Notes: generated by a model not told the origin, from the letters alone. Shown: positions 2,819 through 64,000, counted from the stretch's first letter. The stretch: DNA of 64,000 bases from Candidatus Yonathbacteria bacterium (GCA_013334825.1 JAAXWR010000003.1:37167-101166); one strand, 5' to 3'. Numbers and translations: made by a program.

Positions 2819-5800
2819 TTATATAGACTCTAAAACTGGAACCTCTCCTTGGACAGGTTGCTCAGCGGGTACAGAGATTTCCGGATTCGCCGGTACCTCC
2901 ACCACCACATCAGGGACAATAGAAACTTCCTGCGTTGCATCAAGAATAGGAAGAACATCTTGTGTTGGAGCAACTGTCTCGGTTACAGGAGGAAGTTGCT
3001 CCACCGCCGGAGCATCTGTTGTTCCCCCATTTCCCGTATTCATCCCCCGTTGTTCCAACAAAGTGCGTAGTTGTTCTTTTGTGACACAGACATCCTCAAG
3101 ACACAATTCTTTTGTCTCAACACGTTCAGATTTAAACACCTTCGCTGTTATTGAGGCAATACCATTTCCTGCGTCAGATAGCCACGTGTTTATACGTTCC
3201 AAAAGACGTCCAATAAGTGTTTTTCCTTCCTCTTTTACAACTGGTTCGTCAACAAAATTATTAAAACGCTCATTTATTGCCTGAAAGCCAAGCACCATAT
3301 AGCCAAGTGTATTCGTTGGATTTGTCATCGACCCGTTATATTGTGTCGCCCAAGGAGACTCATCTCCCATCACACCCATATATTCTGTGATAGTATCACC
3401 TGTGCCCATCCCCTCTTTATAATGAAAACGATAAATGTTTGTGGACAAGAGTGTTTCTAACGCTTCTTGCGGATCCTCTATGAGTTCTTCAATATGTTTA
3501 ATATCACGTCCTGCATCGGCTGTATTTCCTCCCCACCAAACAGATTGGACCATAACCATAATTTTTCCTACTTCTCCAGATTCTCCATCATAGGCATCAA
3601 GTGCACGTCCAATAACCTGTCCAGGTCCAATTGCTTTCATCGCAACGCCCGCTTGAGAGGATGACGTTATATAATCACCTCTTCGAATTGGACCGTTTTC
3701 CAAGGAAACTTTTGTGGGAACATGCCCAAGAAGCCCAACATTAACATATTGTTCTGGTGAGTCATATTTTGTTCCTTCTTCATTATCGTTCCAACGAGAC
3801 CCTGTTTCTGAAACAACACCTATAACAAAAGCATCACTTGAGGCATCACAACGCTTTACCGCATCATCACGCTCAGAACTTAAACAAACAACCTCACCAA
3901 AATCAAAGGGTTCACCTTCTTCATTATCAAAAAACTCTGAAAGATCACCTGCCCCATCATTCCATATAAAATATCGATTTCCATTCGATTGATAGTAAAT
4001 ACGATTTGAAGCTGAAACACGCGCAATCCCAAACTCTCCATCATTGGAAAAAGCCGGTGCAGAAGTCCCATAGGACGTTCGCATAACATAATTTCCCCCC
4101 GTGGAAATTGTTCCATTAACAGTAACCGCATCAGAAAAAGTGAACCCGGACGACGTGCCAGTCGCATCCAGCGTCACCATTCCTCCTGAAGAAACAACCA
4201 TTGAAAGATAATTTGAGGCATCATAGCCAAGACGAAACTGCTCAGTCGTTCCAAGCACATGAAGAAATGCTGAGGGACTCGTCGTCCCGATCCCCACATT
4301 CCCCGACGAATCAATCACAAGGCGGTCGTTCGTGCCGAGAGCAGAGCCACCGGAAATCTTGAACTTGTCGGAATCAGAATCATCGACACCCATCGTGAAG
4401 ATATTGGTCGTTCCGTCGACGAGCTGGAATCCGATCTGAGGATCATAATTTCCGGCATTGGTGTTCCCGATGGAGAGTTGGGTGTTGGAAGCGGTGGCAG
4501 AGAGGATATCGAGAACGGAATCGGGTGTCATATCGCCAAGGCCGAGATAATTATTGGTCGCATCCCAGAAGAACCCGTCGGCATCGTAGGTGAGAGCCGA
4601 GGAGGAAGACCAGTACGGGATATGTCCTGCAGCGCCAGTGCCGGTCGGATAGGAAGCGGTATCCCACGAAAGGGTGCCCCCACTATTGCGAAGGACACCA
4701 TTTGCACTTGTGGTCGGGAGGGTGTAGGTGATATTTGCAGACTGGGCACCGGCCTGGAAGATGGTGGCATAGGAGCCGCTTTGGATGCCGAAGGTGCCGG
4801 CGATGCGGGCATCGCCTCCCGATGGAGTGATGACCAAGTCACCTCCCGAGTTCGTCTGGAAGTCGGTATAGACCGAGCCGCCGGTGTAGGTGAGACGGAG
4901 TTGAGGGTTCGTGGCATCGAGGACGTCGAGACGACGGTCGGGGGCGATGGTGCCGATACCGACATTGCCTTTGAGTACCGTCGTAACGATAGAGTCATTC
5001 CCCAAGACCACCGTATTGCTCCCCAAGCCGATAGCCGAAGCCCCAATAACAATCTCATTGCTTCCCCCTGCCACCGAAGCACGAGTGTCATAGCCGAGGA
5101 AGAGGGAGTTGTTGGAGGTTTGGTTAGCAGTGGAGCCATTGGCGAGGTAGCGACCTGCGTTCGCCCCTATCGCGGAGTTCTGATACCCTGTCGTGTTGGA
5201 GCGGAGGGCTTCCCTCCCTATCGCGGAGTTGTTATACCCTGTGGTATTGTTTTGGAGAGCGTACGACCCTATCGCGGAGTTCTGAAACCCCGTCGTGTTG
5301 GAAGTCAAAGCACTCTGTCCGATACCTGTATTGTACGAAGCGTGAGCCGTCAGTGTCGCCGTAGACCCCATACTGAAGTTCCCTGCATTGATACCGATGA
5401 AGGTATTTCCCCCTTCCGTCGTAATCCCACCGCCATTCAAGCCATAATTGAAGTTATGGATGAAGCGGTCAGAGCCTTTGTAGATAATGCCGTATTCAGA
5501 TGCATGAGTGGTGTTGTCAATCCGAACATTGCCCGAAGCGATGTCTAGTTTCTGTGCAGGCGAAGTGGTGCCGATACCGACATTGCCACCACCTTTCATC
5601 AACAATAGATTGCTATATCCACTAGCAACATTTGCAACTTCAAAGGAACTTAACCAACCAGTGCCGGTGCTAAAATAATATCCACCTAATTTATTAGTTC
5701 CGGGAGAGGCTGCTCCGGAAATAAGAGAATATCCACCATTACTTGAACCTCCATAAACTCCAGCTGGAATATCTCCACTTCCAGCATAATCACCTGTGAA

Positions 5801-8800
5801 TTGAAGTTTGTTTGAGCTTCCAACTGTCACTTGCGCACCGCTTGCTGAAGCAAGAATACTTCCGCTTACCTCCAATTTTGCATTTGGACCTGTCGTCCCG
5901 ATCCCCACCTTTCCATCGGCAAGCACCGTAACTCTATCCGCTCCCGCCGTCTGCAAGCGCAACACATCATCTGAAGCCTCATAGAAGCCCGTGTCCCCGT
6001 CGCCGAAAGCAAGCCCCGTGGAAAGAGCCCCCGTCCCGCCGTTTAGGTGGAGTTTCGCAAGGGGAGAGTCTACCCCCACCCCCACATTCCCCCGCAAAGC
6101 CGTCGTCGTGATACTGCTATTCCCCAAGACCACGCTATTGCTCCCCAAGCCGATAGCCGAAGCCCCGATAACAATCTCATTACTCCCCCCTGCCGCCAAA
6201 GCACGGGTTTCGTTTCCGAAGAAGAGAGAGTTGTTGGAGGTTTCGTTGCTAGAGACATCGGCGAGATAGCGACCTGCATATCGTCCAACCGCCACGTTAT
6301 TACTACCAGTCGTATTATTATAGAGTGAGCCATGACCGATAGCGACGTTTGCAGAACCAGTAGTGTTGCTATTTAAAGACCTAGACCCAAATGCTAAGTT
6401 TAAGTTTCCAGTCGTATTACTTGGAAGCGCAGAGTTCCCAACTGCAGTATTGTATGAAGCTTGAGAAGCCGATGTCGCCGTACTTCCCATTGTAAAGTTC
6501 CCCGCATTGATACCGATAAAGGTGTTATACCCTTCCGTCGTCACCCCACCACCATTCAACCCATAATTGAAGTTATGGATGAAGCGGTCAGAGCCTTTGT
6601 AGATAATGCCGTATTCAGATGCATGAGTGGTGTTGTCAATCCGAACATTGCCCGAAGCGATGTCGAGTTTTTGTGCAGGCGAAGTGGTGCCGATGCCGAC
6701 ATTGCCTTTGAGTACCGTCGTAACGATAGAGTCATTCCCCAAGACCACGCTATTGCTCCCCAAGCCGATAGCATTTGCCCCAATCACAATCTCATTACTC
6801 CCCCCTGCCACCAAAGCGCGGGTGTCATTGCCGAGGAAGACGGAGTTATTGGAGGCTTGGTTAGCAGTGGAGCCATCGGCGAGGTAGCGACCCGCTTGAT
6901 ACCCTAATCCAAAGTTATTCGACCCTGACGTGTTAGCGAAGAGTGCGTACGCACCTATCGCGGAGTTTCGATACCCAGTCCCATTGGAATAGAGGGCGTA
7001 CGCACCTATCGCGGAGTTGTAAAATCCTGTCGCGTTAGCAGCCAAAGCACTCTGTCCGATACCTGTATTGTATGAGGCGTGAGACGTCAGTGTCGCCGTA
7101 GACCCCATACTGAAGTTCCCCGCATTGATACCGATAAAGGTGTTATACCCTTCCGTCGTCACCCCACCACCATTCAACCCATAATTGAAGTTATGGATGA
7201 AGCGGTCAGAGCCTTTGTAGATGATGCCGTATTCAGATGCATGAGTGGTGTTGTCAATCCGAACATTGCCCGAAGCGATGTCGAGTTTTTGCAGTGGGTT
7301 GGTGGTGCCGATGCCGACGTTGCCTGAAGTATCCAACGCTAACAAAGTCGAAGCGCTATTCCAGTCATTGCCCACACGAAAATGTATCGGCGTAGGAGTT
7401 CCTGTTCCAGTCCTATCAGATGCAATAACATGAGATCCATCTGCCGTCCCAACCGCAATGAGTCTGTTCGCATTAGATGCTTTCGCAAGAAACTCAAATG
7501 AATATCCTATACCAGTCGTTCTATTGGAAGTTAGCTTAAATGTCGGATATGTTGCAGCTTGTGGCTGAATACTAAAATTATTACCATTAGGTCTCACGGT
7601 CAAATCTCCACCAGAACCAACGGTAAATTTAACATTATTTGTGGCATCATATCCCAATCTTAATTGCTCACTAGAAGATATTGCCTCCAACATTGCTCCA
7701 GGACTCGTCGTCCCAATCCCCACCTTGCCGTCAGTAAGCACCGTCACCCTATCTGCCCCCGCGGTTTGAAGTCGTAACACGTCATCGCTAGACTCATAAA
7801 ACCCAGTGTCCCCGTCGCCGAAAGCAAGTCCTCCTCCTGTAAGTGCGTACGAATTACCCGCGATAGTAAGAGCTCCCCGCAACCATGCGTCACCCGTTTC
7901 TTTTATTGAAAAACGTGGAGTGCCCGCGACACCAATACCTAAAAGATACGAATTCGCCAGAGGGGCTGTTGGGTTGACCAATAACGAAGCTTTCCCGTAT
8001 GTCGTATCTATTGGTTCAAAATTAAATATCGCTTGTCCCGCGGTAGAAATAGTATCCACAACCATATTTGTCGCATAAACATTGTTGAAACGTTTTGACA
8101 GGGAACCAATATCTGAAGCCACATCAGTTTCTGGATACAAATTTCTTCCCACGACAATATTACCAAGAGCTTCGATGCCATTCTCTACAAAAAGAGAGTG
8201 CTCTTGTGCTAATGGAGTAAGGAGTGTAAGAGGTGTAGCGGATGATGATCCTACCGTCGTAAGCCCTATCGTATCAAACCCAATACGCGCAAATCCACTT
8301 ACTGTCGCCGTATCGACACCTGTCTCACCAGCAGTAACGGAGAAGTTTCCAGTGGATGTAATATCAGAAAATTCGGCGTTGGGAATAATAATTAAAGACG
8401 GCGTTACTGTCATGGACGTCGTATCATCATATACTGTCATTGAATTCCTCACATGTATACCTGATACCACATCAAGTGCCCCCGAGATATAAACATCGCC
8501 TGTTCCATCAATGCCTCGCGTCGAAACACCAGGGCCAACAGAAAGCAACCCTGTCGTAGTATCAATCGTAAGCACATCCGCAAGAGATACGTCTCCCGTA
8601 ACAGATAAGTCTCCTGTAAAAGAAGCTGCCCCTTCCACGGAAACATCTCCCGAAAATGAACCCACCGTACCAGTGATTGACCCTTCAAACGTAGACGCTA
8701 TGATATTCGCACGCGAAATATCTACTCCAGAAAGTTTATCCACGCGCTGAGTAAGTGCAATGGTGCGGAAATTGTCTCCTGTCACCGTGGAAACCTTCGC

Positions 8801-10285
8801 AATCTCCTTACGAAGTTCATTCTCACTTTGCGAAACAAATGTTTCCATTTCCTCGTGCGTTATACCCGTGTGAGAAACAACAATAGGTGACGGCGTCGAA
8901 ACAACTCGTTCAATAACTCTCTCAAGAATGACCGGCGATTCTTTTTGTGGTGTATCTTTCTTGTCTGAAAGATGTGGAGTGGATGAAGTAGATGCATCCG
9001 CAGCAGACAACTCATCTGGAAGATGTTCAGATGCGTAAGAAGAAGTGTCCGTAGCAGATGTTGCCAACCCCTGAGACTTTGGAGATGTTTTTATCCCCGC
9101 GATAAAGCGATACAAACGAAGAGCAACAGTATCTATGTATGTTGTTACTTTTTCTCCTATACCAAAAACATTCGCGACCGTGCCTACTCGCAAGGATGCG
9201 AACATGTCATGGTGATAAAAATTTCTCTCCTGTATAGCGGTCGTTACACTCTCTCCCGCCTGATACATAACAGACGCAAGTGTATCGCCAACAAATGTTT
9301 CGCCTGCGACAAGTGTGTCACGCACTGATGTGAAGAAGGTGAAATATCCAGACGAAAAGGAAGATACTGTATCTGCGATAGTTCTTGTGTATGCAACTGC
9401 TTCTTTGCCTACGTGTTCTGTGAGGAAGGTATGAGAAAATGTGCGGGCAAGTGATGCGCGCATGTTTGCAAACGTCGTCATAAGCAATTCACCCGCGAAC
9501 GTACTGAGAGACGCGAGTGTTGCTGTCATCGCGTGTGTTGTTGTGGTGATGTTCGTCGCGACTGCATTCGTCGTGGTTGTCGTGGTACGCGCGATAGCAT
9601 CTGTGATGGTGTGCGTACCACGTGCGAGAGATGAGGTAAAAGTTTCCACCACATCAATAAACATGTCGTGTGTACCATGGGCAAATGTAGACACAAACGT
9701 AACTGTGGAGAGAGAGGTATCTTCTGTTGTTGTATCATAGTCACTGACTTCATAGTCACTGACTTCTTGTGATGATGTGGGTGAAAGAGACGCGACAACA
9801 TGTTGCAGAGGTGCTGAGACTTCAGAGACGACACGAGAAAGACCGCCCTCATGCGCGGAGAGTATTGCATCCCCCGCAAAAATAGTTGCGAGTACCAGGA
9901 CAGCCGTAAGTAAAAACTTTGCAGTCGCTCCCGTTGAGACAGTCGCTTCCGCAACCTCTTTTATGTGAGAAAATAACACCTTGTTATAGAGGGGTACACC
10001 CATCCCCCCATGCTTCAAGAATACCCCATATGCCTTCTTGGAACGAAGAGAGGATTCGGCAATACGTTTGAAAAATCGTTCGCGCTTTTTCCCTCCATAC
10101 GCGTCCATATACACACAGAGTGAATCAAGGTCAATGAAGCGTGTTCTGTTTTTTATTTCCCCTTTGAGACGACCGTTTCGTGCGAGCATGCTCAAATAAT
10201 CGGATGTGAATCCTGTCAATTCGGCGGCTTTTTTTGATGAAACATACTGCGTTCCTTTTGCAGTAGTAAACGAATCTCGTGACAT
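2819..10285 (-). CDS. giant (2488 aa) membrane-anchored surface protein with tail-fibre-like GIGTTSP repeats
   Basis: Single uninterrupted ORF. N-terminal excisionase-like HTH-like segment (KKAAELTGFTSDYLSMLARNGRLKGEI), one TM helix (FLLTAVLVLATIFAG), then about 2300 aa of Thr/Ser/Gly/Asn-rich beta-repeat sequence. Threefold repeats of about 350 aa (GNVGIGTTSPAQKLDIASGNVRIDNTTHASEYGIIYKGSDRFIHNFNYGLNGGG...) and twofold LAFGDGDTGFYE.SDDVLRLQTAGADRVTVL modules. Confidence 0.8.
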   Translation of the reverse strand: MSRDSFTTAKGTQYVSSKKAAELTGFTSDYLSMLARNGRLKGEIKNRTRFIDLDSLCVYMDAYGGKKRERFFKRIAESSLRSKKAYGVFLKHGGMGVPLYNKVLFSHIKEVAEATVSTGATAKFLLTAVLVLATIFAGDAILSAHEGGLSRVVSEVSAPLQHVVASLSPTSSQEVSDYEVSDYDTTTEDTSLSTVTFVSTFAHGTHDMFIDVVETFTSSLARGTHTITDAIARTTTTTTNAVATNITTTTHAMTATLASLSTFAGELLMTTFANMRASLARTFSHTFLTEHVGKEAVAYTRTIADTVSSFSSGYFTFFTSVRDTLVAGETFVGDTLASVMYQAGESVTTAIQERNFYHHDMFASLRVGTVANVFGIGEKVTTYIDTVALRLYRFIAGIKTSPKSQGLATSATDTSSYASEHLPDELSAADASTSSTPHLSDKKDTPQKESPVILERVIERVVSTPSPIVVSHTGITHEEMETFVSQSENELRKEIAKVSTVTGDNFRTIALTQRVDKLSGVDISRANIIASTFEGSITGTVGSFSGDVSVEGAASFTGDLSVTGDVSLADVLTIDTTTGLLSVGPGVSTRGIDGTGDVYISGALDVVSGIHVRNSMTVYDDTTSMTVTPSLIIIPNAEFSDITSTGNFSVTAGETGVDTATVSGFARIGFDTIGLTTVGSSSATPLTLLTPLAQEHSLFVENGIEALGNIVVGRNLYPETDVASDIGSLSKRFNNVYATNMVVDTISTAGQAIFNFEPIDTTYGKASLLVNPTAPLANSYLLGIGVAGTPRFSIKETGDAWLRGALTIAGNSYALTGGGLAFGDGDTGFYESSDDVLRLQTAGADRVTVLTDGKVGIGTTSPGAMLEAISSSEQLRLGYDATNNVKFTVGSGGDLTVRPNGNNFSIQPQAATYPTFKLTSNRTTGIGYSFEFLAKASNANRLIAVGTADGSHVIASDRTGTGTPTPIHFRVGNDWNSASTLLALDTSGNVGIGTTNPLQKLDIASGNVRIDNTTHASEYGIIYKGSDRFIHNFNYGLNGGGVTTEGYNTFIGINAGNFSMGSTATLTSHASYNTGIGQSALAANATGFYNSAIGAYALYSNGTGYRNSAIGAYALFANTSGSNNFGLGYQAGRYLADGSTANQASNNSVFLGNDTRALVAGGSNEIVIGANAIGLGSNSVVLGNDSIVTTVLKGNVGIGTTSPAQKLDIASGNVRIDNTTHASEYGIIYKGSDRFIHNFNYGLNGGGVTTEGYNTFIGINAGNFTMGSTATSASQASYNTAVGNSALPSNTTGNLNLAFGSRSLNSNTTGSANVAIGHGSLYNNTTGSNNVAVGRYAGRYLADVSSNETSNNSLFFGNETRALAAGGSNEIVIGASAIGLGSNSVVLGNSSITTTALRGNVGVGVDSPLAKLHLNGGTGALSTGLAFGDGDTGFYEASDDVLRLQTAGADRVTVLADGKVGIGTTGPNAKLEVSGSILASASGAQVTVGSSNKLQFTGDYAGSGDIPAGVYGGSSNGGYSLISGAASPGTNKLGGYYFSTGTGWLSSFEVANVASGYSNLLLMKGGGNVGIGTTSPAQKLDIASGNVRIDNTTHASEYGIIYKGSDRFIHNFNYGLNGGGITTEGGNTFIGINAGNFSMGSTATLTAHASYNTGIGQSALTSNTTGFQNSAIGSYALQNNTTGYNNSAIGREALRSNTTGYQNSAIGANAGRYLANGSTANQTSNNSLFLGYDTRASVAGGSNEIVIGASAIGLGSNTVVLGNDSIVTTVLKGNVGIGTIAPDRRLDVLDATNPQLRLTYTGGSVYTDFQTNSGGDLVITPSGGDARIAGTFGIQSGSYATIFQAGAQSANITYTLPTTSANGVLRNSGGTLSWDTASYPTGTGAAGHIPYWSSSSALTYDADGFFWDATNNYLGLGDMTPDSVLDILSATASNTQLSIGNTNAGNYDPQIGFQLVDGTTNIFTMGVDDSDSDKFKISGGSALGTNDRLVIDSSGNVGIGTTSPSAFLHVLGTTEQFRLGYDASNYLSMVVSSGGMVTLDATGTSSGFTFSDAVTVNGTISTGGNYVMRTSYGTSAPAFSNDGEFGIARVSASNRIYYQSNGNRYFIWNDGAGDLSEFFDNEEGEPFDFGEVVCLSSERDDAVKRCDASSDAFVIGVVSETGSRWNDNEEGTKYDSPEQYVNVGLLGHVPTKVSLENGPIRRGDYITSSSQAGVAMKAIGPGQVIGRALDAYDGESGEVGKIMVMVQSVWWGGNTADAGRDIKHIEELIEDPQEALETLLSTNIYRFHYKEGMGTGDTITEYMGVMGDESPWATQYNGSMTNPTNTLGYMVLGFQAINERFNNFVDEPVVKEEGKTLIGRLLERINTWLSDAGNGIASITAKVFKSERVETKELCLEDVCVTKEQLRTLLEQRGMNTGNGGTTDAPAVEQLPPVTETVAPTQDVLPILDATQEVSIVPDVVVEVPANPEISVPAEQPVQGEVPVLESI
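4950..7330. repeat. near-identical intragenic DNA repeats (200-400 bp units) inside the giant gene
   Basis: Segments about 5370-5592, 6481-6712 and 7100-7320 are near-identical (...gaagcggtcagagcctttgtagataatgccgtattcagatgcatgagtggtgttgtcaatccgaacattgcccgaagcgatgtc...). A second family at about 4960-5160, 6090-6290 and 6700-6900. A third at about 5880-6060 and 7700-7860. Confidence 0.8.
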
Positions 10286-11174: not shown

Positions 11175-11325
11175 ATGCGAGTTGCGAGCACACTTACGAA
11201 TAACGAATGTGTACGAATATACGAATGATATATAACATGTGTGAAAGAAACTTTTTATTCGTATATTCGTACACATTCGTTATTCGTATGTTCATATTTC
11301 TTCATTCACATCTCGTTTCGTAGGC
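11160..11325. repeat. intergenic repeat cluster: GCGAGTT heptads plus a 66-nt dispersed repeat
   Basis: gcgagttgcgag at 11177-11188 abutting the holA start; cacttacgaataacgaat (11191-11210); 66-nt element 11257-11322 near-identical to 15358-15423. Confidence 0.7.
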
Positions 11326-11365
11326 TCCCTGCACCACGCAAGATACAGAGCAGGCTCGACATGTA

Positions 11366-12283
11366 TTATTCAATGCGTTCATTTGTTATCGCAACAAGTC
11401 GTGTTCGGTATTCTTCTTCATCAATGGCTCCATTGGCATAGAGTTTTTCTACACCGGCGAGGTATTGTTCTTTCACTTCTTGAGCGGTAAGAGAACGGGC
11501 GTAGATACGGACGTCGTCGATAATGCCATCCCAAAATCTATTACTATAATGCCAGCCAATGACTGTCTTGGTTGGTGTAAAAACCCCAGGAACTATATTC
11601 GTCAAATGTGTTTTTTTTATCACACCATTCAAATATATCTTCACTGAAGACCCATCATACGTACCCATGACATGATACCATTCACCTGTATTTAAGATAT
11701 TCTCAGTCGTTACGATATTTTCTGTGGAGGATGTCCCGTTTGCAACTGAAAATACTAAACTATTATTACTGCCCGAAAAAAGCACCAGCCTTAACTGAGC
11801 CCACGCAGGACCTACTTCACTTGAAAAGATCGTCATCTTAGTAGGATTCCAATGGCTAGCTTTTACCCATGCTGAAACAGCGCCTTGGTTGGGGTTTATA
11901 ACTGTGGCATTATTTAGATTAACATAATCATTCACCCCATCAAACGACAACGCATATTTACTCACCCCCGCATTGTAGGTATCGGTGGTAAAGGTTGCAC
12001 CAGATATGGTACCGTGATTACCCCAACCAGACACATCTCTGACAGTAACGCCTGACCCTTCTTCGAAGTTCCACATACCGACTGCGTCGGCACCCATAAT
12101 ACGGTCGTTTTGGGCAGCAAATTGGAGTGCTGTTTTTTGTTTTGCATCATCACGTGCTTTGTTGACGCTGGCAAGGACGATGGAAGAAAGAAGTCCGATG
12201 ATGGAAACGACAACAAGGAGTTCGATGAGCGTGAAGGCGCGGTATGTTGATGCTCTCTGTGATGAGAACGATATGTGCATCAT
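11366..12283 (-). CDS. type IV pilin-like protein with C-terminal LamG/concanavalin-like domain
   Basis: Prepilin N-terminus RAFTLIELLVVVSIIGLLSSIVLASV (class III signal with conserved Glu). C-terminal Laminin_G_3-like segment (DGVNDYVNL...GEWYHVMGTYDG...IYLNGV...DDVRIYARSL). Start chosen at ATGATG 12283, downstream of the TGCTATACT motif; the ORF track extends to 12415. Confidence 0.7.
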   Translation of the reverse strand: MMHISFSSQRASTYRAFTLIELLVVVSIIGLLSSIVLASVNKARDDAKQKTALQFAAQNDRIMGADAVGMWNFEEGSGVTVRDVSGWGNHGTISGATFTTDTYNAGVSKYALSFDGVNDYVNLNNATVINPNQGAVSAWVKASHWNPTKMTIFSSEVGPAWAQLRLVLFSGSNNSLVFSVANGTSSTENIVTTENILNTGEWYHVMGTYDGSSVKIYLNGVIKKTHLTNIVPGVFTPTKTVIGWHYSNRFWDGIIDDVRIYARSLTAQEVKEQYLAGVEKLYANGAIDEEEYRTRLVAITNERIE

Positions 12284-12472
12284 GATAGATATAGTATAGC
12301 ATGTGCGAGTTGCGAGTTGCGAGTTAATAATTATGTGGTGGATATAGCATTTGTCAGTTTTTCTCTGTATTTCATTTTCCAAAGCATCAAACAACACATG
12401 CCAAATCACAAACAAATATCAATCATCAAATGCTAAAACGTTGTTTGAATATTAGGTATTAGAATTTGAATA

Positions 12473-14908: not shown

Positions 14909-15521
14909 GAAACATAGAGACAGTATATCAGATAGGCGTCGAGTTGCGAGTACGATTACAGATGAAGAACCCTGATGCAGAGCATCGAAATATTGAGAAT
15001 AGCGAATGTCACGAATCGTAAAACAAGAACTGGCGACTCTTCATCTAGCATCAAGTTCAGGATGACACTCTTTTCCATCTGTCATTCTGTGCTTGCCCCA
15101 GAATCCACGTCGGAGGCGTTATGTATTATTCCATTGACGTGGATCCTGAATCAAGTTCAGGATGACGAACGAGAGGGTTTAGGATGGCGGACAGTGGCGT
15201 TCAGGACGACGGATCTTGTTGAGTTACGAATTATAAGTTTCAAGAACACTTACGAATAACGAATACGATTTCTTTTTCATTTTATAGTTTTCTTCTTCAT
15301 ATTTCTATTTTCTTATTTCATCGTTTATCGTTTTTTATAGTTTATCGTTTCTTAGTCATTCGTATATTCGTACACATTCGTTATTCGTATGTTCATATTT
15401 CTTCATTCACGTCCCGTTTCGTATGTTCGTACAAGTTCGTAATTCGTAACCCTTAATTCTTGATTCGTGCTTCGTGATTCTTGATTCGAGTGTTCGTCCC
15501 TATCACCTCTCACCTATTTCC
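14909..15521. repeat. 613-bp intergenic region with direct and inverted repeats plus dispersed repeat copies
   Basis: TCAAGTTCAGGATGAC at 15051-15066 and 15151-15166 (exactly 100 nt apart; partial third copy about 15197-15212). IR CCACGTC/GACGTGG (15105-15142). cgtttatcg-type AT-rich repeats at 15266-15357. 66-nt element at 15358-15423. Confidence 0.7.
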
Positions 15522-29680: not shown

Positions 29681-30814
29681 TTAACGATTCATTGGCATCA
29701 CTAAATACATAAATGAAACATCTCCAATTGGTGTGATAATGATAGGTCGTCCTTTTCCAAAAAACGACATTTGTAAACTATCTGTTGAAATTGCTTGAAA
29801 TGCATCTGTAATATATTTATAATTAACACTAATATCAATTTCTTCTCCAGACAATGATGCTTGTATTGGAACAATACTAGTACCAATGTCTGAATTTTTT
29901 GTTTCAATAATAAATCTTTTTTCTTTTGGATTTATTGAAAAGATTGTTTGACGAAATGTGTTCGCAACAATAGTACTCACTTTAAGGGCATTTATAAGAT
30001 CTTCTTTTAGCACAATAACTTGTGTGGTGTGTTCTTTAGGAATAATTTGTTTATAATCAGGAAATGTCCCATTAATAATGCGTGATGTTACATATACACC
30101 TTCTTTTTCAATAACAATTTGATGATCATTAAAACGAATATCAAGTGTGTCATCTATTCCATCAAACACTTTTATCAGCTCTTGAGCATTTTTAAAAGGA
30201 ATAAGGATTCCTCCCCAATCACGAATATTTTTTTCTTTTACTTTTTTCTCAGCAAGGCGAAATGAATCTGTGGCTACAAATACAATGGTGTCATTTTCTG
30301 GATATATATATACACTTGCGAGTTCTGGTTTTATATCTGATACAGAAGAAGCATATACGACAGATTTTAAACCAATTACTAATTTTTTTGACTCAAGAGA
30401 GAATGTATACCCATCAGACACTACAGGAAGGGTCGGAAACTCCTCTGTAGGAGCTCCTTTGATAGTTGTAGTGACTTCCCCACCAGAAATAATTATATGC
30501 CCATTCTGTGAGGTAATTTCGACTGTTTTAACAGTATTTCCAAATGTACTTAAAAGACCATTGATGATATGTGCAGGAATAGCAACAATACCTTCACCTT
30601 CTGTTTTTGCAGGAATAGCTACTTCTATACCAATATCAAGATTTGTGGCTCGTAATACGAGCATTTTATTCTTTACCTCAACTAACATATTTGAAAGGAT
30701 GGGAAGGGAGAGACTTTTTCCTGTCATTTTTTCTGCTTTTGTTACCATTGATGCAAACATTTCACGAGAACATGATGCTGAAAATTCACTTACTGTTTTT
30801 TGTACAGTTGTCAT
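29681..30814 (-). CDS. dnaN: DNA polymerase III beta subunit (sliding clamp)
   Basis: Three-domain beta-clamp pattern (N-terminus ...LSLPILSNMLVEVKNKMLVLRATNLDIGIEV); position immediately downstream of dnaA. Confidence 0.85.
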   Translation of the reverse strand: MTTVQKTVSEFSASCSREMFASMVTKAEKMTGKSLSLPILSNMLVEVKNKMLVLRATNLDIGIEVAIPAKTEGEGIVAIPAHIINGLLSTFGNTVKTVEITSQNGHIIISGGEVTTTIKGAPTEEFPTLPVVSDGYTFSLESKKLVIGLKSVVYASSVSDIKPELASVYIYPENDTIVFVATDSFRLAEKKVKEKNIRDWGGILIPFKNAQELIKVFDGIDDTLDIRFNDHQIVIEKEGVYVTSRIINGTFPDYKQIIPKEHTTQVIVLKEDLINALKVSTIVANTFRQTIFSINPKEKRFIIETKNSDIGTSIVPIQASLSGEEIDISVNYKYITDAFQAISTDSLQMSFFGKGRPIIITPIGDVSFMYLVMPMNR

Positions 30815-31059
30815 AATGTGGAAAAGTTATGTTTATAATATATAGATATATATTATTACTATTATATACGTGTATAAGTGGATAACACAAATATGTTACG
30901 TAATACCAATACTATTTCATCAACAGGAGTGTAAATGAGTCTACACAAATTATACATACATTACTACGTGTATAAAGAAAATAATTGGTATACACATATT
31001 CTTAACATCTTTTATATACCATTATCCTTTATTATTTCACATAATATCCACAGAGTTTT
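30815..31059. promoter_or_regulatory. AT-rich dnaA-dnaN intergenic region with DnaA-box-like sites (candidate oriC part / DUE)
   Basis: agtggataa 30867-30875 (reverse-complement TTATCCACT, 8/9); atatccaca 31044-31052 (8/9); long AT tracts (tatagatatatattattactattatatacg). Confidence 0.55.
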
Positions 31060-32403
31060 CTACAGAAGAGCGCGTATTTGATCAACTTCATTTCGTAATA
31101 TATCATCATTTGATAAATCATTTCTCATTTTTTCATACGAATGCATAACTGTTGTGTGGTCACGTCCCCCTAATTTTTTTCCAATAAGTGGATATGATGC
31201 ATTATAATCTTCACGTAATAAATACATGACGACTTGTCTTGGTTTTACCACCTCTTTTCTTCGTGTTTTTTCATAAATATCTTTTTCTTCAATACTATAG
31301 AAACCAGCAACTATTTTTGTGACATCCTTAAAGGAAATAATACTTTTTGGTTTATTTGTTCCGCGAACAATAGCTTTAATATCGTCAAGTGTGATGATAT
31401 TGTTTTTTATTTGTGCGTGACAAGATACAGTATTTAATACTCCTTCTAATTCTCTAATATTTCCTTCAACTGTCATGGCAAGATATTCAATTGCTTGAGG
31501 ATCAAGAAGAAGTCCTTTTTCTTGTGCTTTCATAGAAAAAATAGACGTACGTGCTTCAAATTCAGGTTGACTGATATCCACAATCATTCCTGCATTAAAA
31601 CGTGATTTGAGACGTGCCTCAAGTCCAGGAATGAAATTTGGATGCATATCAGATGAAAAAACAATTTGTTTATTCGCATCATATAAGGTGTTAAATACAT
31701 GGAATAATTCTTCTTGGGTTTTTTCTTTATTAGAAAGAAATTGAATATCATCCATAATCAGAACATCATATGTGCGATATTTTTCTTTAAACACATTCAC
31801 TGTGTCATTTTGAAGGGAAGAAATATACTCAACAAGGAATTTTTCTGATGTGAGATACATAACATTTTTCCCCATATCTTTTTTGAGATAATTACCAATT
31901 GCTTGTATGAGGTGTGTCTTCCCTACTCCTGTTCCTCCATACACAAAGAATGGGTTATATACAATACCAGGTTTTTTGATAATTGCTTGAGATGCTGCAT
32001 ATGCGAGTGTGTTGAACGATCCAACAATAAATGAATCAAATGTATATTTTGGATTGAGATTACTTTGTTTATCAATGTATAAATCTGACAAAGGAAGTTC
32101 CTCAGAAGAACACATTGTTTTTGTATGAGGAATATCAGGGGATGATTTTTTCTCACCTTTATGAATGATGTATTCTACGCCACGTACTCCATCAGATAAT
32201 TCACGTAATGATTTGAGTATCATTTTATGGAATTTTGTGGAAAGCCATTCCTTCACAAATTCATTAGGAACAGCGACTGTGATCACACCTTCTTCTTGTC
32301 TCGCAATATAAGTGTTTCGAAACCACGTACTAAAATTTGCACGCGAGAGGTTTGCTTCCATATCGGAGAGTACACTATTCCAAAGTTGAGTTTGATCCGA
32401 CAT
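31060..32403 (-). CDS. dnaA: chromosomal replication initiator protein DnaA
   Basis: AAA+ Walker A NPFFVYGGTGVGKTHL, Walker B LIMDDIQFL, C-terminal DnaA box-binding HTH (TTVMHS...). Confidence 0.95.
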   Translation of the reverse strand: MSDQTQLWNSVLSDMEANLSRANFSTWFRNTYIARQEEGVITVAVPNEFVKEWLSTKFHKMILKSLRELSDGVRGVEYIIHKGEKKSSPDIPHTKTMCSSEELPLSDLYIDKQSNLNPKYTFDSFIVGSFNTLAYAASQAIIKKPGIVYNPFFVYGGTGVGKTHLIQAIGNYLKKDMGKNVMYLTSEKFLVEYISSLQNDTVNVFKEKYRTYDVLIMDDIQFLSNKEKTQEELFHVFNTLYDANKQIVFSSDMHPNFIPGLEARLKSRFNAGMIVDISQPEFEARTSIFSMKAQEKGLLLDPQAIEYLAMTVEGNIRELEGVLNTVSCHAQIKNNIITLDDIKAIVRGTNKPKSIISFKDVTKIVAGFYSIEEKDIYEKTRRKEVVKPRQVVMYLLREDYNASYPLIGKKLGGRDHTTVMHSYEKMRNDLSNDDILRNEVDQIRALL

Positions 32404-32648
32404 AATGAAGATGAGGATTGATTTGATTGATAATCGTTACGAACGTGCATGTAATTATATACGGGTGGATAGGAAGTGGAAACTTGCGAACATGGGAAAA
32501 GTCTGTTGATAAGGTGTGGATAAATAATTATATGAATAAAAACTCGAGAAACATATACATATAAACATATAAATGATAAATAACACATAAATCCTTTCGT
32601 ATTGGAATATGTTGCTTTTTTCATACTATGGTGTATAGTAATGCAACT
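32404..32648. promoter_or_regulatory. dnaA upstream region with DnaA boxes (candidate oriC part)
   Basis: Perfect TGTGGATAA (reverse-complement TTATCCACA) at 32515-32523; ggtggatag at 32464-32472 (reverse-complement CTATCCACC, 7/9); tgttgataa at 32504-32512 (reverse-complement TTATCAACA, 8/9). Confidence 0.6.
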
Positions 32649-32783
32649 ATGTCGCAAACATATAAACCAAGCAAAAGAAAGCGTGCGACCACACATGGTT
32701 TTCTTGTTCGTTCTGAAACACCTTCAGGACGCGCAATCCTTAAAAACCGCCGCCGTAAAGGGCGCGCAAAGCTTTCCGTGTAA
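32649..32783 (+). CDS. rpmH: 50S ribosomal protein L34
   Basis: 44-aa [47 protein letters not shown] found by manual translation (below ORF-track cutoff); canonical position divergent from dnaA. Confidence 0.9.
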
Positions 32784-32848
32784 TATATAAATAAAAAAAC
32801 AAATAACACAACCTTTTCAAGGTTGTGTTATTTGTTTATGATGGAGGA

Positions 32849-33196
32849 ATGCTTTCCAAACATCTCAGACTTACCAGTCATGATATTCCCCTACCACAAA
32901 AAGGATTACAGGTATTTCATACTGAACGACTTACACTTGCAATATCTCCTTGTCATGATAAAAAACCATCGAAATTTGCTGTTCTTGTCTCAAAAAAAGG
33001 GAAAAATGCTCCTACACGCAATAAGATGCGACGTCGTATATATGAAGCAATTGGAATGTTTAGGGGTCGTATAAAACAAGGATATAGATGTATATTCTCT
33101 CTCAAAAAAGGTATTTCTTCTGATATTCCCTATCACATTATCTTCGCGGACGTTACTATTCTTCTCAAACAAGCGGGATTACTATGTCTTTCTTAA
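32849..33196 (+). CDS. rnpA: ribonuclease P protein component
   Basis: FAVLVSKKGKNAPTRNKMRRRIYEA (RNR motif); synteny rpmH-rnpA-yidD-yidC; start uncertain (32825 or 32849). Confidence 0.8.
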   Translation: MLSKHLRLTSHDIPLPQKGLQVFHTERLTLAISPCHDKKPSKFAVLVSKKGKNAPTRNKMRRRIYEAIGMFRGRIKQGYRCIFSLKKGISSDIPYHIIFADVTILLKQAGLLCLS

Positions 33197-33444
33197 AAAA
33201 CATACATAAAAATATAATCGTGTGGCTTGTCAGGGTATATCAATTCTTTCTTTCACCGGACAAAAATATTCTTGTAAAAATAGGTGCTATTCAACCACGG
33301 ATAACCTGCGTGTTTTACCCAACGTGTTCGGAATATATGATCCTTGCTATTGAGAAATATGGTGTACGAAAAGGGATTGTCAAAGGAATACAGCGTATTG
33401 GCAAGTGTCGTAAAGGTACTCCCCTGTCGGTCGATATGCCGTAA
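33184..33444 (+). CDS. yidD: membrane protein insertion efficiency factor YidD
   Basis: YQFFLSP....CVFYPTCSEYMILAIEKYG..KG...RI.KC; conserved synteny. Confidence 0.85.
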   Translation: MSFLKNIHKNIIVWLVRVYQFFLSPDKNILVKIGAIQPRITCVFYPTCSEYMILAIEKYGVRKGIVKGIQRIGKCRKGTPLSVDMP

Positions 33445-33492
33445 CGCCTTTTTCCTTGCTCAAACAAGGAAAAAGGCGTACAATACGGAAAT

Positions 33493-34263
33493 ATGGTAGG
33501 TTTTTTCGAGTCCGTTATCTATATTCCTCTTTTCAACGCTCTCGTTTTCCTCACTTCTCTTTCCCCGTGGGCGGATATTGGTATTGCTATCATTCTCCTT
33601 ACGATTATTGTTCGTCTGGTCCTTTTTCCTCTGACACATGCGTCGTCAAAAACACAAGCTAAAATGCGAGAACTTGAGCCGGTACTCAATAAAATAAAAG
33701 AAGATCATAAAGATGATCAGGAAGCGCAAGCGCGAAAAATGATGGCGTTATATAAAGAACATGGTCTCAACCCCGCGACAGGATGTCTGACCCTTTTTAT
33801 TCAGTTGCCAGTTATCCTCGGTCTTTTTTGGGTGTTTAAGGACATTCATGCTGACACGTCTGTGTTGCATGGGGCATATGTGGCACTTTCTTCTATTGCC
33901 GATACTGGACTGTTATATCCATTTACTCCCTTCCCCGCACTCGTGCAAACACATTTCCTTGGTGTACTTGATATGACAGGGAAAAGTATCATACTCGCAC
34001 TTCTTGCGGGAGTCACTCAATATATTCAGTCCGCGATTGCCATGCCTGGAGTAAAAATGACACTAAAAAGCACGGGGTCATTTAAGGATGATTTGGCGCA
34101 AAATATGAAGTTCCAAATGCGGTATTTCTTCCCTATTATGATTACTGTATTTGCATACTCCGTTTCAGCGGCAGTAGCACTGTATTGGGTTACGGGGAAC
34201 GTGTTTACTATTATTCATGAGCTTTTTGTGAATCGAAAAATTTCAAAAAGTGTCACCGTATAA
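33493..34263 (+). CDS. yidC: membrane protein insertase YidC (short form)
   Basis: LFPLTHASSKTQAKMRELEPVLNKIKEDHKDDQEAQARKMMALYKEHGLNPATGCLTLFIQLPVILGLFWVF (60-kDa inner membrane insertase core). Confidence 0.9.
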   Translation: MVGFFESVIYIPLFNALVFLTSLSPWADIGIAIILLTIIVRLVLFPLTHASSKTQAKMRELEPVLNKIKEDHKDDQEAQARKMMALYKEHGLNPATGCLTLFIQLPVILGLFWVFKDIHADTSVLHGAYVALSSIADTGLLYPFTPFPALVQTHFLGVLDMTGKSIILALLAGVTQYIQSAIAMPGVKMTLKSTGSFKDDLAQNMKFQMRYFFPIMITVFAYSVSAAVALYWVTGNVFTIIHELFVNRKISKSVTV

Positions 34264-53991: not shown

Positions 53992-55462
53992 GAGAGTAGT
54001 ATAGCATGAGAGACGAAAAGCCAGTTCTTAGTTCGTAGTTCTTAGTTCTTAGAACAACTACGAGATGGGATTTTAGGTTTCTCGTGACGTCTCTGCCATA
54101 CAGAGCGCGTGGGTCCACACCGCCCTTTCTTAAGAAAGGGCGGGGAGGACGAGTTTTAAGAGATGAAATGTTCCCCCATGTGTTACGATATGTAATAAGA
54201 AAAGAGGGTATTCAAATGATGATTCATGAGTGAAGTGACGTAGTGCAAAAGAATACATACATACATGTGTAACAATAGATAAAGAGAACCCCGCACGAAG
54301 CGGGGTTTTCAGGCAGAAGGTCAGTCAGGCGTCCAGCATATAGCCGGACGGGACCTTGGCGGCCGAGGCGGACGAGGTGGTGGCAAGATTTTTATATGCG
54401 GTCGGGCGTGAAGCCCCACCGCTGCGGCATCGTGCGTGCATATGCACCTCCTTGTTTTTGACCCTAGCTCTCTATAAATGTAGAGAGATGGGTCGGTTGA
54501 TGTTGTACATACCTTGCGGAAGGCAATCCGAAAGGTCTGGGTAGAGTATAGCATACCCAGATTTTTTGTCAAGCGTTTGTAAGAGGTGTCATGTTGGGCT
54601 GTTTTTTACCGTCATGCCTATGAATAACGGATACGTACGTCTGCTTGTATCCGTGTAACTCGCTATGTGTCCTCTGTGGTACGGGGTACTTCAGCATATG
54701 CGCCTAGTATAAAGTAATGTATATAAAGAAAAGTTTTTATTTGTTTATTGTATGTATCTGTCATGTGTGTCTTGTATGTTTTCATAAAAAAACAAAGGCC
54801 CACGGAGGGGCCTTGTAAAAAAGAGGACGGATAATGAATATCAAATGACTGAATGCTCAACGGAACATACACGATGAAGGTAAAAAAGTTTTTGTAGCTC
54901 GGCCGAGCTGACATCGGTGTGTGGGTTGAGAATCAATTCCTTGATATCTACTATATGTCCTTATATAAAGAACAAAAAGAACACAAAGAACAAAATGAAA
55001 GAACCTTGATACTATTGTCGCATACCTATGTATCATGTCAATGAACCGTGGTGTGGATAAAAAATTACTCCCGCCGAAGCGGGAGTAAATCGTCGGATTA
55101 AACGAGGTGTGATGTTTATCCGACGAAACTTACGCGGGACTCAACGCCGGGGTGGCGTCTTGCCCCAAGGAAAAGTTTCTTCATAAGAAACCTCCTTTTA
55201 AAGGTTGATGAAACTGTACGCCGTCAGTAAGTCTGACAGCGTGAAGGAACAGGAGAATGTTATCATAGCACATACCATGGAGACGTCAACTATTTTTGTT
55301 TTCTTTCCATGTTGATGGATATACGTTTATTGATAAGAAATACGCATACGGTTCAGTATTGACCTTGTGTGTGGGCATGCTATCCTCTCTAAGGTTTTCT
55401 TTGATTATAAAAGACGTGAGAAGACTATTACACATGGATAAAAACTAAACAGGGGTATTGTC
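53992..55462. other. 1.47-kb gene-free region with multiple stable hairpins, a dispersed repeat, and a GC-rich structured segment (54316-54560)
   Basis: No ORF >83 aa, and none convincing. Hairpins AACCCCGC-acgaa-GCGGGGTT (54290-54310), TCTGGGTA...TACCCAGA+TTTTTT (54536-54568), AGGCCC-acgga-GGGGCCT (about 54800), TTACTCCCGC-cgaa-GCGGGAGTAA (about 55065). Repeat agttcttagttcgtagttcttag (54030-54060), inverted at 63947-63975. Confidence 0.7.
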
Positions 55463-61610: not shown

Positions 61611-61624
61611 GTGTATAGTATAGC

Positions 61625-61690
61625 AGATGAGATATGCGAGTTGCGAGTTGCGAGTTGCGAGTTGCGAGTTGCGAGTTGCGAGTTGCGTTA
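61625..61690 (+). repeat. tandem heptad array (GCGAGTT) x about 8
   Basis: gcgagttgcgagttgcgagttgcgagttgcgagttgcgagttgcg followed by ttaataattatgg; the same unit occurs at 12302-12326, 11177-11188 and 14939-14952. Confidence 0.9.
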
Positions 61691-61744
61691 ATAATTATGG
61701 GGGAGTTTTAAAAGTCAAGTTTTGGTATAGAGAAGAAAAGGCGG

Positions 61745-61775
61745 GGGCGGGCTTCGCCCGCCCCCGCCGTCGCCC
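61745..61775. other. GC-rich perfect hairpin in an AT-rich spacer
   Basis: GGCGGGGGCGGGC-ttc-GCCCGCCCCCGCC (13-bp stem). Confidence 0.6.
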
Positions 61776-62031
61776 ATCGTCGTCATACCCGCCTACATCT
61801 TATCCCTCCCCTTTTTCTCTTGACTACCTTTCTCTGTCCCCCATCTCCTTCTTCTCCAACAGCATACCGTGTCATATATATATGTACATGTTACACACAT
61901 CTAGTGCGATTTTTCCCCACCACTAAGAATGTACCTATCAAACATTGAAATACTTGACTTTTTTGCATTTTTGGTGTATAAATAACAACAATCTATAGTT
62001 CTACTAAAACATAATAAAAGGAAAAATAACC

Positions 62032-63830: not shown

Positions 63831-64000
63831 GTCCCGCCTTTTTGTTATGTCGAGACGGACAAACTCTATGTATTCACCAACAAAGATACAACAGAGAACC
63901 GCCCTTCTCTTTTCTGAAACTCAAAAGCTGTTTCATTAGTTGTTCTACGAACCAAGAACTACGAACTAAGAACTGCCTTTCGTTTCTCGTTCTTCGAACT

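Follow-up and report, generated by a model that had tools for sequence, protein, structure and literature searches.

Heptanucleotide repeats are the most abundant class of long simple sequence repeats (LSSRs) in many prokaryotes, which has been attributed to slippage (Mrazek et al. 2007, as summarized in PMC4679880). TAACTGA direct repeats have been reported from marine Beggiatoaceae, Cyanobacteria and Bacteroidetes (MacGregor 2015, PMC4679880), and it was proposed that they recruit ribosomes or a single-stranded-RNA-binding protein (PMC4679880). In Haemophilus influenzae, the (ATCTTTC)n repeat in the promoter/5'-UTR of hmw1A and hmw2A has a graded rather than an on/off effect; once transcribed, the repeat base-pairs with a G-rich arm, which yields an RNase III hairpin, and only the control of adhesins is concerned (PMC12721329). 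The heptamers TTTTGAA and GACCAAT/GACTAAT (STRR-type) of Nostoc lie within 30–100 nt of the start codons or –10 boxes of many genes, DNA repair genes among them, and reporter assays showed an altered response to a regulator after heptamer deletion (bioRxiv 10.1101/2022.06.06.494920).

We analyzed a 64,000-nt stretch of DNA (hereafter, the window) from a metagenome-assembled genome of Candidatus Yonathbacteria (CPR/Patescibacteria), in which heptad arrays precede several genes. Among the 12 papers listed by a literature search, none combined Patescibacteria with simple sequence repeats (SSRs) or phase variation. Around 2012, Nijveen, Matus-Garcia and van Passel reportedly described 'mobile' promoter sequences, which are reused in front of non-homologous genes. 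Near-identical segments likewise lie upstream of unrelated genes here (sites A and B, and sites E and F in Table 1); the difference is that the reused segment carries an expandable heptad array.

As far as the LSSRs of Mrazek et al. (2007) are described in PMC4679880, our arrays resemble them in their perfect, non-coding 7-nt units, in their sporadic occurrence across phyla and in period 7 being the most abundant class, and differ from them in belonging to the CPR/Patescibacteria lineage and in lying within reused promoter modules of leaderless genes. As with TAACTGA (PMC4679880), one preferred heptamer occurs in forward orientation at many intergenic sites upstream of unrelated or housekeeping genes. 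However, TAACTGA and AACTCGC share only AACT, and the TAACTGA unit itself does not make up the arrays described here; moreover, although the arrays are forward at all sites, just one of the four sites initially reported abuts a start codon, whereas the others lie upstream of a predicted –10 and are thus probably outside the main mRNA. In addition, related heptamers are rare as repeats in the Beggiatoaceae genome (PMC4679880), whereas several related units coexist here. The hmw repeat and our arrays are both 7-nt SSRs located between promoter elements and the start codon and polymorphic in whole units (PMC12721329); in contrast to hmw, (AACTCGC)n is unstructured and has no complementary partner nearby, and the arrays also precede polA, holA-like, pcrA-like and Clp-like genes. 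The Nostoc heptamers are similar in being contiguous and close to starts (bioRxiv 10.1101/2022.06.06.494920), but the lineage and units are different. Overall, the arrays differ from the TAACTGA, Nostoc and hmw repeats in unit, in lineage and in lying mostly upstream of a leaderless promoter rather than in a leader, and their appearance is that of a common microsatellite subject to slippage, a type known from other bacteria.

(GCGAGTT)n on the + strand, which reads AACTCGC on the gene strand, was found at four sites in the window (sites A–D, Table 1), within 1–3 nt of the positions given in the initial annotation. When one mismatch was allowed, the 12-mer GCGAGTTGCGAG had 10 matches, which fell at these four separate sites and nowhere else in the window; shuffled controls gave 0.22 ± 0.46 matches, and none of 100 shuffles reached 10. 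The isolated GCGAGTT heptamers found elsewhere in the window (12 occurrences) were present at approximately the number expected by chance. TRF reported array A at 61635–61687 with 7.6 copies and a 100% match, and array B contains 3.1 perfect copies; the shorter sites are listed as GCGAGTTGCGAGCA (11177–11190) and TCGAGTTGCGAGTA (14939–14952). Sites A–D, which are all + strand repeats in intergenic DNA just upstream of minus-strand starts, always place AACTCGC on the sense strand of the downstream gene, in agreement with the initial report that the repeats adjoin minus-strand gene starts. Together with sites E and F, all six arrays fall in intergenic DNA, which makes up about 9% of the window, and their orientation relative to the downstream gene is identical in 6/6 cases. 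Array A is overlapped by a single ORF (61627–61926, + strand), which is probably spurious because the change from 12 to 13 units seen between relatives would frameshift it; such frameshifting unit changes between strains rule out a coding repeat.

Table 1. Arrays, predicted promoter elements and associated features in the window
Feature	Position	Strand	Description
Array A	61636..61684	–	7 exact AACTCGC units; –26 to –74 from ATG 61610
Array B	12305..12325	–	3 exact AACTCGC units; –22 to –42 from pilin-like ATG 12283
Site C	11177..11190	–	GCTCGC-AACTCGC, ~2 units; ends 2 nt before holA-like ATG 11174
Site D	14939..14952	–	TACTCGC-AACTCGA, 2 imperfect units; 11 nt upstream of polA extended –10
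Site E	54023..54052	–	(AAGAACT)×4.3, i.e. AACTAAG rotated; 16 nt upstream of extended –10 TGCTATACT
Site F	63945..63974	+	Copy of the site E module: TAGTTGTTCT, 4 AAGAACT-type units, CCTTTCGT
Predicted extended –10 TGCTATACT (P_down, leaderless)	61617..61625	–	6 nt before ATG 61610
Predicted extended –10 TGCTATACT of pilin-like gene	12293..12301	–	9 nt before ATG 12283
Predicted extended –10 TGATATACT of polA	14922-14930	–	ATG 14908, 13 nt after the –10
Predicted extended –10 TGCTATACT of pcrA/uvrD-like gene (site E)	53998-54006	–	ATG 53991
13-mer CATAATTATTAAC, with –10-like hexamers	61687..61699	–	Directly 5' of array A
13-mer CATAATTATTAAC, second copy	12323..12335	–	Directly 5' of array B
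TTGACT, –35-like	61713..61718	–	16 nt upstream of AATTAT in the 13-mer
CTGACA	12352-12357	–	16 nt upstream of CATAAT in the array B 13-mer
Intrinsic-terminator-like site	61740..61768	–	13-bp all-GC hairpin, then TTTTCTTC; –20.8 kcal/mol, z –4.3
Pilin-like cassette (promoter, gene, long hairpin)	11178..12304	–	Bounded by arrays B and C

The genes behind the arrays are of mixed function. The polA label downstream of site D was confirmed, and the product of the pilin-like gene carries a prepilin N-methylation motif (N_methyl) and a Laminin_G_3 domain. The labels initially given to the other two genes stood only in part: the holA match is below threshold (TIGR01128, 67.9 bits against a cut-off of 80), and the ClpB/ClpA-like AAA+ gene sits behind an unannotated 130-aa membrane-like ORF, which lies directly downstream of array A and whose product is 100% identical to an NCBI protein of Candidatus Yonathbacteria. 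Site E precedes a pcrA/uvrD-like helicase gene, and site F precedes, in relatives, a LysM/M23 peptidase gene whose start lies beyond the window end. The array-bearing genes thus include surface-type genes (pilin-like and LysM/M23) as well as polA, holA-like, pcrA-like and ClpB-like genes. We also noted a 2488-aa ORF at 2819–10285 with internal 51-bp repeats (5165–5302, 2.7 copies), which is probably a giant surface protein. In the middle of the window, dnaN (29681–30814) and dnaA (31060–32403) lie at a sign change of the GC skew; the region 29681–33500 has AT-rich spacers (GC ~0.32) and a turn of the cumulative GC skew, and is probably the chromosomal origin region. Genes to its right (34.8–61.6 kb) are mostly on the would-be lagging strand, which is unusual. 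Because the arrays flank the dnaA region on both sides and keep the same gene-relative orientation, their orientation follows transcription and not replication.

Many genes in the window carry TGnTATACT 6–10 nt before the ATG. The distance from TAYAHT (TA[TC]A[ACT]T) to the ATG of the next long ORF peaks at 6 nt, and TGCTATACTATA recurs at five starts compared with 0.15 expected. Close spacing between a –10 element and the ATG is the established signature of leaderless extended –10 promoters, and an extended –10 promoter needs little from a –35. The TGnTATACT pattern near the ATG would accordingly be read as the signature of leaderless mRNAs transcribed from extended –10 promoters. At polA, the sequence predicts a short leader rather than none, since the ATG would lie 7 nt past the predicted start.

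The initial annotation placed the arrays at or over the –35 region. This holds for three of the four (A, B and D), which cover the –35 and upstream region at about –22 to –74, with a predicted extended –10 at 6–13 nt before the ATG; when counted from the start predicted by its –10, site D spans approximately –24 to –37. Site C is unlike the others, as the holA-like array is located at the start codon and no –10 intervenes between them; the arrays at the remaining sites end 22–32 nt before the ATG, upstream of the –10. At 17 nt upstream of the –10, sites A and B have the hexamer CGCAAC, and site D and relatives L142 and L143 have CTCGCA; the register relative to the –10 is thus shifted by 2 nt from one site to another. 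A weak –35-like hexamer, TCGCAA, lies 16–18 nt from the –10 at all four independent types of AACTCGC junction. The chance of this placement is ~(3/7)^4 = 0.03, and TCGCAA matches TTGACA at just 3/6 positions. A divergent + strand promoter using TTGCGA of the array as its –35 was rejected on account of its spacing at A (15 or 22 nt); at site B, TTGCGA is 17 nt from AATAAT, yet nothing lies downstream there.

Sites A and B share more than the repeat unit. In both cases, the array lies within a common module, in the order –35, CATAATTATTAAC, array and TGCTATACTATA, and a second module is common to sites E and F. The 13-mer CATAATTATTAAC, which includes the 8-bp palindrome ATAATTAT, has two exact copies in the window, each 5' of a perfect array; the flanks shared by A and B were identified by exact-match searches, as a MAFFT alignment of A with B was misaligned by the repeats. 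At both sites, the sigma-70-like –35 and –10 elements predict a start at the first repeat unit. TTGACT and the 13-mer could therefore form a candidate upstream promoter, P_up, transcribing array A as a leader; such upstream sigma-70-like promoters are consensus matches occurring at background frequency and serve as a lead only. A terminator-like hairpin lies upstream of the array A module (Table 1).

Several other intergenic elements were observed around these modules. A hairpin, CCCGCCCTTTCTTAAGAAAGGGCGG, occurs near both AAGAACT modules, at 54131–54155 and past the window end (L148, last 30 nt); it precedes the array at one of these sites and follows it at the other, and is a small dispersed intergenic element. 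On the minus strand at 54542–54553, there is a textbook promoter (TTGACA, ~17 nt, TGCTATACT), located within a doubtful 83-aa ORF (54321–54572) or at its start; this ORF has no family match, and the promoter there may control either a short gene or a small RNA. The minus-strand segment 61770–62031 (~260 nt) is purine-rich and ends in a strong terminator-like hairpin; neither a convincing ORF nor an Rfam match was found in it, and it may be an unannotated small transcript. The corresponding position was compared in relatives L142, L146 and L147, of which L146 and L147 also carry a hairpin, of different sequence and preceded by heptad-periodic purine-rich repeats.

We compared these sites with orthologous loci, which were obtained from a metagenome scan with polA and from look-ups of homologues of the 130-aa protein. 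Site A contains 7 units in the window, 12 in L142, 13 in L143, 13 in L144 and ~2 in L145, counts that derive from short-read assemblies and may be slightly wrong for arrays of 90–100 bp. Across 5399 nt, L142 and L143, which come from different studies, had 0 mismatches and one gap, equal to one heptad. Length polymorphism in whole units between close relatives is thus present at site A, and the suggestion that copy number is slippage-prone was borne out by the strain comparison. The flanks of site A are conserved (terminator hairpin, TTGACT, 13-mer and TGCTATACTATAC followed by the ATG), with TTGACT kept in L142–L144. Compared with L143, L145 is 99.7% identical downstream of the array and sharply diverged, or only loosely alignable, upstream of it.

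In other relatives, the unit itself changes or the array is missing. At the site A position, L146 (130-aa protein 64% identical) carries degenerate GACAACT (AACTGAC-type) heptads and L147 (65% identical) carries no array; TGCTATACT before the ATG is retained in both, and the P_down –10 is invariant in L142–L147. At the holA-like site, L121 (polA 94% identical) has (ACTAGTA)9.4, i.e. AACTAGT in 9.4 copies, abutting the same holA-like CATATG, L124 has 8-mer repeats similar to TACTGACA, and L122 has no array; more distant Parcubacteria carry AATTGAA or TTAGAAT arrays at the equivalent junction. No array was found upstream of polA in L121 or upstream of the uvrD-like gene in L146. Copy number, unit and the presence of an array are therefore all labile, whereas the core promoter and the genes are conserved, and the site sequence at orthologous promoters is not conserved although the –10 and the gene are kept. 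The arrays were the fastest-changing sites in the strain comparisons made here.

Other repeats were seen in the neighborhood of polA. The polA–tsaE spacer (14909–15521) is 613 bp, very long for a compact genome, and is packed with repeats: the 22-mer GTTCAGGATGACGGACGAGAGG in 2.7 copies, a 20-mer in 3.1 copies, CTTGATT in 5.1 copies and an octamer hairpin arm. The polA upstream region of L121 could not be aligned with that of the window, whereas the coding sequence is 88% identical. A perfect inverted repeat of TACGAATA-like octamers with a 32-bp stem (11195–11297; –34 kcal/mol, z –7.8) is placed between the pilin-like stop and the holA-like start and attracted spurious miRNA-precursor Rfam hits. 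Its arms recur in the polA–tsaE spacer (15250–15270 and 15358–15410), and it looks like a dispersed intergenic element, possibly a terminator.

A scan of genome contigs recovered (GCGAGTT)3 in at least 120 loci from many phyla. Period 7 accounted for 5/6 tandem arrays in the window, 16/25 in the Yonathbacteria relatives and 248/316 in the at least 120 cross-phylum loci, where about half of the 248 are the AACTCGC arrays that had been searched for. The 129 non-AACTCGC arrays among the cross-phylum matches listed represent ~100 different units. In viral contigs, AACTCGC was found at 8 loci compared with 2 and 9 for two composition-matched heptads, a weak comparison given the small counts and the viral collection. 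In view of the ~100 other heptads and the viral-contig controls, a conserved cross-phylum element specific to AACTCGC was rejected. Among the cross-phylum matches listed, sense AACTCGC preceded long ORF starts in 47 cases and the reverse orientation in 23, at distances of 9–63 nt and 36–94 nt, respectively; this test is crude, as it is ORF-based and the arrays interrupt none of the six reading frames. AACT or AGTT occurs in 5/11 period-7 window arrays, against ~5.5% expected for a random unit; AACT occurs in 4/16 non-AACTCGC arrays of the window and relatives (filtered count) and in 14% of non-AACTCGC arrays across phyla, against ~5.5% expected, among the matches listed. A universal AACT core was rejected, as the 14% share is low and many of these units are AACTCGC variants. 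The enrichment is clearer within this lineage, where the numbers are small, and we regard it as a weak lead.

Some genomes from other phyla showed further features around their arrays. In Thermoguttaceae genomes (L020, L027, L054, L092 and L107), the conserved motif CCGCTCCCGNTGGTCGCT lies ~15–25 nt upstream of AACTCGC arrays; several (AACTCGC)3 arrays, from more than one locus and more than one genome, have it, and TCTCGC usually stands between the motif and the array. Planctomycete genomes may thus carry the AACTCGC array within a reused 5' module. In further phyla (e.g. L001, L034, L066, L091 and L118), an inverted GAGTT-type array is often found 20–40 nt upstream, and the paired arrays could form a long imperfect hairpin just before the start codon. 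This arrangement is reminiscent of the hmw 5'-UTR hairpin, whereas the window arrays are without such a partner.

The three features that define long SSRs, namely head-to-tail copies of a 1–11-nt unit beyond chance, whole-unit polymorphism and, for units that are not a multiple of 3, a non-coding position, were all found. We therefore consider it probable that the arrays are heptanucleotide SSRs ('long SSRs') in promoter-proximal intergenic DNA, contained within reused promoter modules. The arrays would grow and shrink by slipped-strand mispairing, and the same unit would recur at several promoters through the copying of array-bearing promoter modules between loci. In folding calculations, sense (AACTCGC)n reached only –1.3 kcal/mol (z +1.3), compared with –9.4 kcal/mol (z –2.2) for the complement (GCGAGTT)n; the latter strand could thus form slipped hairpins and the sense strand would be unstructured. 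A structured RNA or DNA element was rejected, as the sense strand is unfolded, no Rfam match was found at or near the arrays, and no inverted array copy exists in the window that could serve as a partner for (AACTCGC)n.

We then considered what a change in copy number might do. At A, B and D, and with another heptad at E, the array would occupy the stretch from –22 to –74 in a leaderless extended –10 promoter, and at A and B it would in addition lie directly downstream of the candidate sigma-70-type promoter and could be transcribed as a leader. Because the array is periodic and meets the –10 at a fixed junction, gain of a unit would leave the sequence at the –35 unchanged; indeed, the sequence near the –35 is identical for any n of at least 3 units. 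A copy change would then shift the spacing of the upstream promoter, 13-mer and terminator hairpin in 7-bp steps with a graded effect, or with none, or would alternatively alter leader length. Since a unit change only shifts the distance to elements further upstream, an on/off switch is unlikely, and the phase-variable expression proposed at the outset is disfavored by this predicted layout. No repeat was found between or within core promoter elements that would alter –35/–10 spacing or reading frame, and neither a conserved site sequence nor a fixed register, as would be expected of an operator array, was observed; on these sequence comparisons, the arrays fit neither an operator array nor a classical spacer-type or frame-type switch of phase variation. 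We infer that the arrays act neither as a switch nor as a common operator. Realistically, copy number may influence expression in a graded way or not influence it, and graded behavior of the hmw type seems the most likely.

Among the alternatives, an RNA-level role is unlikely but has several observations on its side. It supposes that the array is transcribed as an unstructured 5' leader, free of start codons and SD sequences, which recruits ribosomes or a single-stranded-RNA-binding protein (S1 or Csp type) or sets mRNA processing. The holA-like array reaches to within 2 nt of its ATG, and the (ACTAGTA)9.4 array of L121 is likewise at the ATG, downstream of a TTGACA; the predicted upstream starts at A and B, the unfolded sense strand, the sense orientation 9–35 nt before ORF starts across phyla (among the matches listed) and the precedents of TAACTGA (PMC4679880) and hmw mRNA processing (PMC12721329) point in the same direction. 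However, array and ATG are separated at A, B, D and E by a strongly conserved extended –10 at a leaderless distance, so that the main transcript would exclude the array; D and E are without a recognizable upstream promoter, those at A and B are consensus matches of a kind found at background frequency, and the unit sequence is not conserved. The initial annotation suggested a shared repressor or activator array or a promoter-up element, that is, operator or activator sites for one DNA-binding protein (or a –35/UP-type element) defining a pilin, polA, holA and Clp regulon. Having one unit, on one strand and at approximately one position at four promoters, together with the constant TCGCAA spacing and the palindrome ATAATTAT in the flanking 13-mer, would suit such a regulator. 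Turnover at orthologous sites and a shifting register nevertheless disfavor any shared sequence-specific regulator: close relatives have another unit or none while retaining the –10 and the gene, the register moves by 2 nt, copy number ranges from 2 to 13, E and F build the same architecture from an unrelated unit, the holA-like array is at the start codon, and TCGCAA agrees with TTGACA at half of its positions. Next to the arrays, there is nothing that would suggest a cognate DNA-binding protein. We consequently hold this explanation to be quite improbable.

Still less probable, in our estimation, is that the arrays are recombination junctions, i.e. short portable homology tracts used for the exchange or deletion of modules and cassettes. 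Between polA and the holA-like gene, the window contains 1.1 kb (11178–12304) with no counterpart in L121, L122 and L124; in relatives without the pilin-like cassette, the holA-like gene directly follows polA. As this cassette has AACTCGC arrays on both sides and the identity of L145 with L143 breaks down at the array, the arrays may mark such junctions, and the modules common to unrelated loci and the breaking of assemblies at arrays, with short Logan contigs ending in them, fit the same idea. On the other hand, just two events are involved, 14–21 bp of homology is very short for RecA-type exchange, and L145 is a short contig that could be chimeric; recombination would also be compatible with slippage of an SSR and is hence no true alternative to it. 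Chance or an assembly artefact can be regarded as effectively refuted already. Repeats do occur at or near contig ends in several assemblies, but the number of matches far exceeds that in shuffled sequences, the 53-bp array is shorter than a typical read, and the array was independently recovered with identical flanks in ENA, JGI, NCBI and Logan assemblies.

The SSR explanation leaves one feature to be accounted for. Pure neutral slippage does not predict uniform orientation, and the uniform sense orientation and the closer ORF starts therefore indicate that some constraint or a transcription-linked mechanism is acting. Some points favor a function, namely this orientation, the placement of TCGCAA and the AACT enrichment in the lineage. 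A more far-reaching proposal, which we offer as a rather doubtful one, is that the arrays are more than passive microsatellites: CPR bacteria would have portable 5' modules whose expandable core is the array, with sense AACT heptads being kept by a single-strand-binding factor or by transcription, and the arrays would also serve as swap junctions for promoters and cassettes such as the pilin gene.

The finding extends the known, still unexplained class of heptamer repeats beside gene starts to a new lineage, and it argues against reading such arrays as the operators of a regulon. The arrays explain why assemblies break at these points and, even if neutral, could serve as strain markers. CPR bacteria cannot be grown alone and need type IV pili for attachment to their hosts; one of the arrays sits on a pilin promoter. 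If the arrays tune expression, they would represent a first example of SSR-based expression variability in the Candidate Phyla Radiation, and if they are indeed the core of portable 5' modules, they would offer small-genome episymbionts a cheap means of rewiring and tuning expression.
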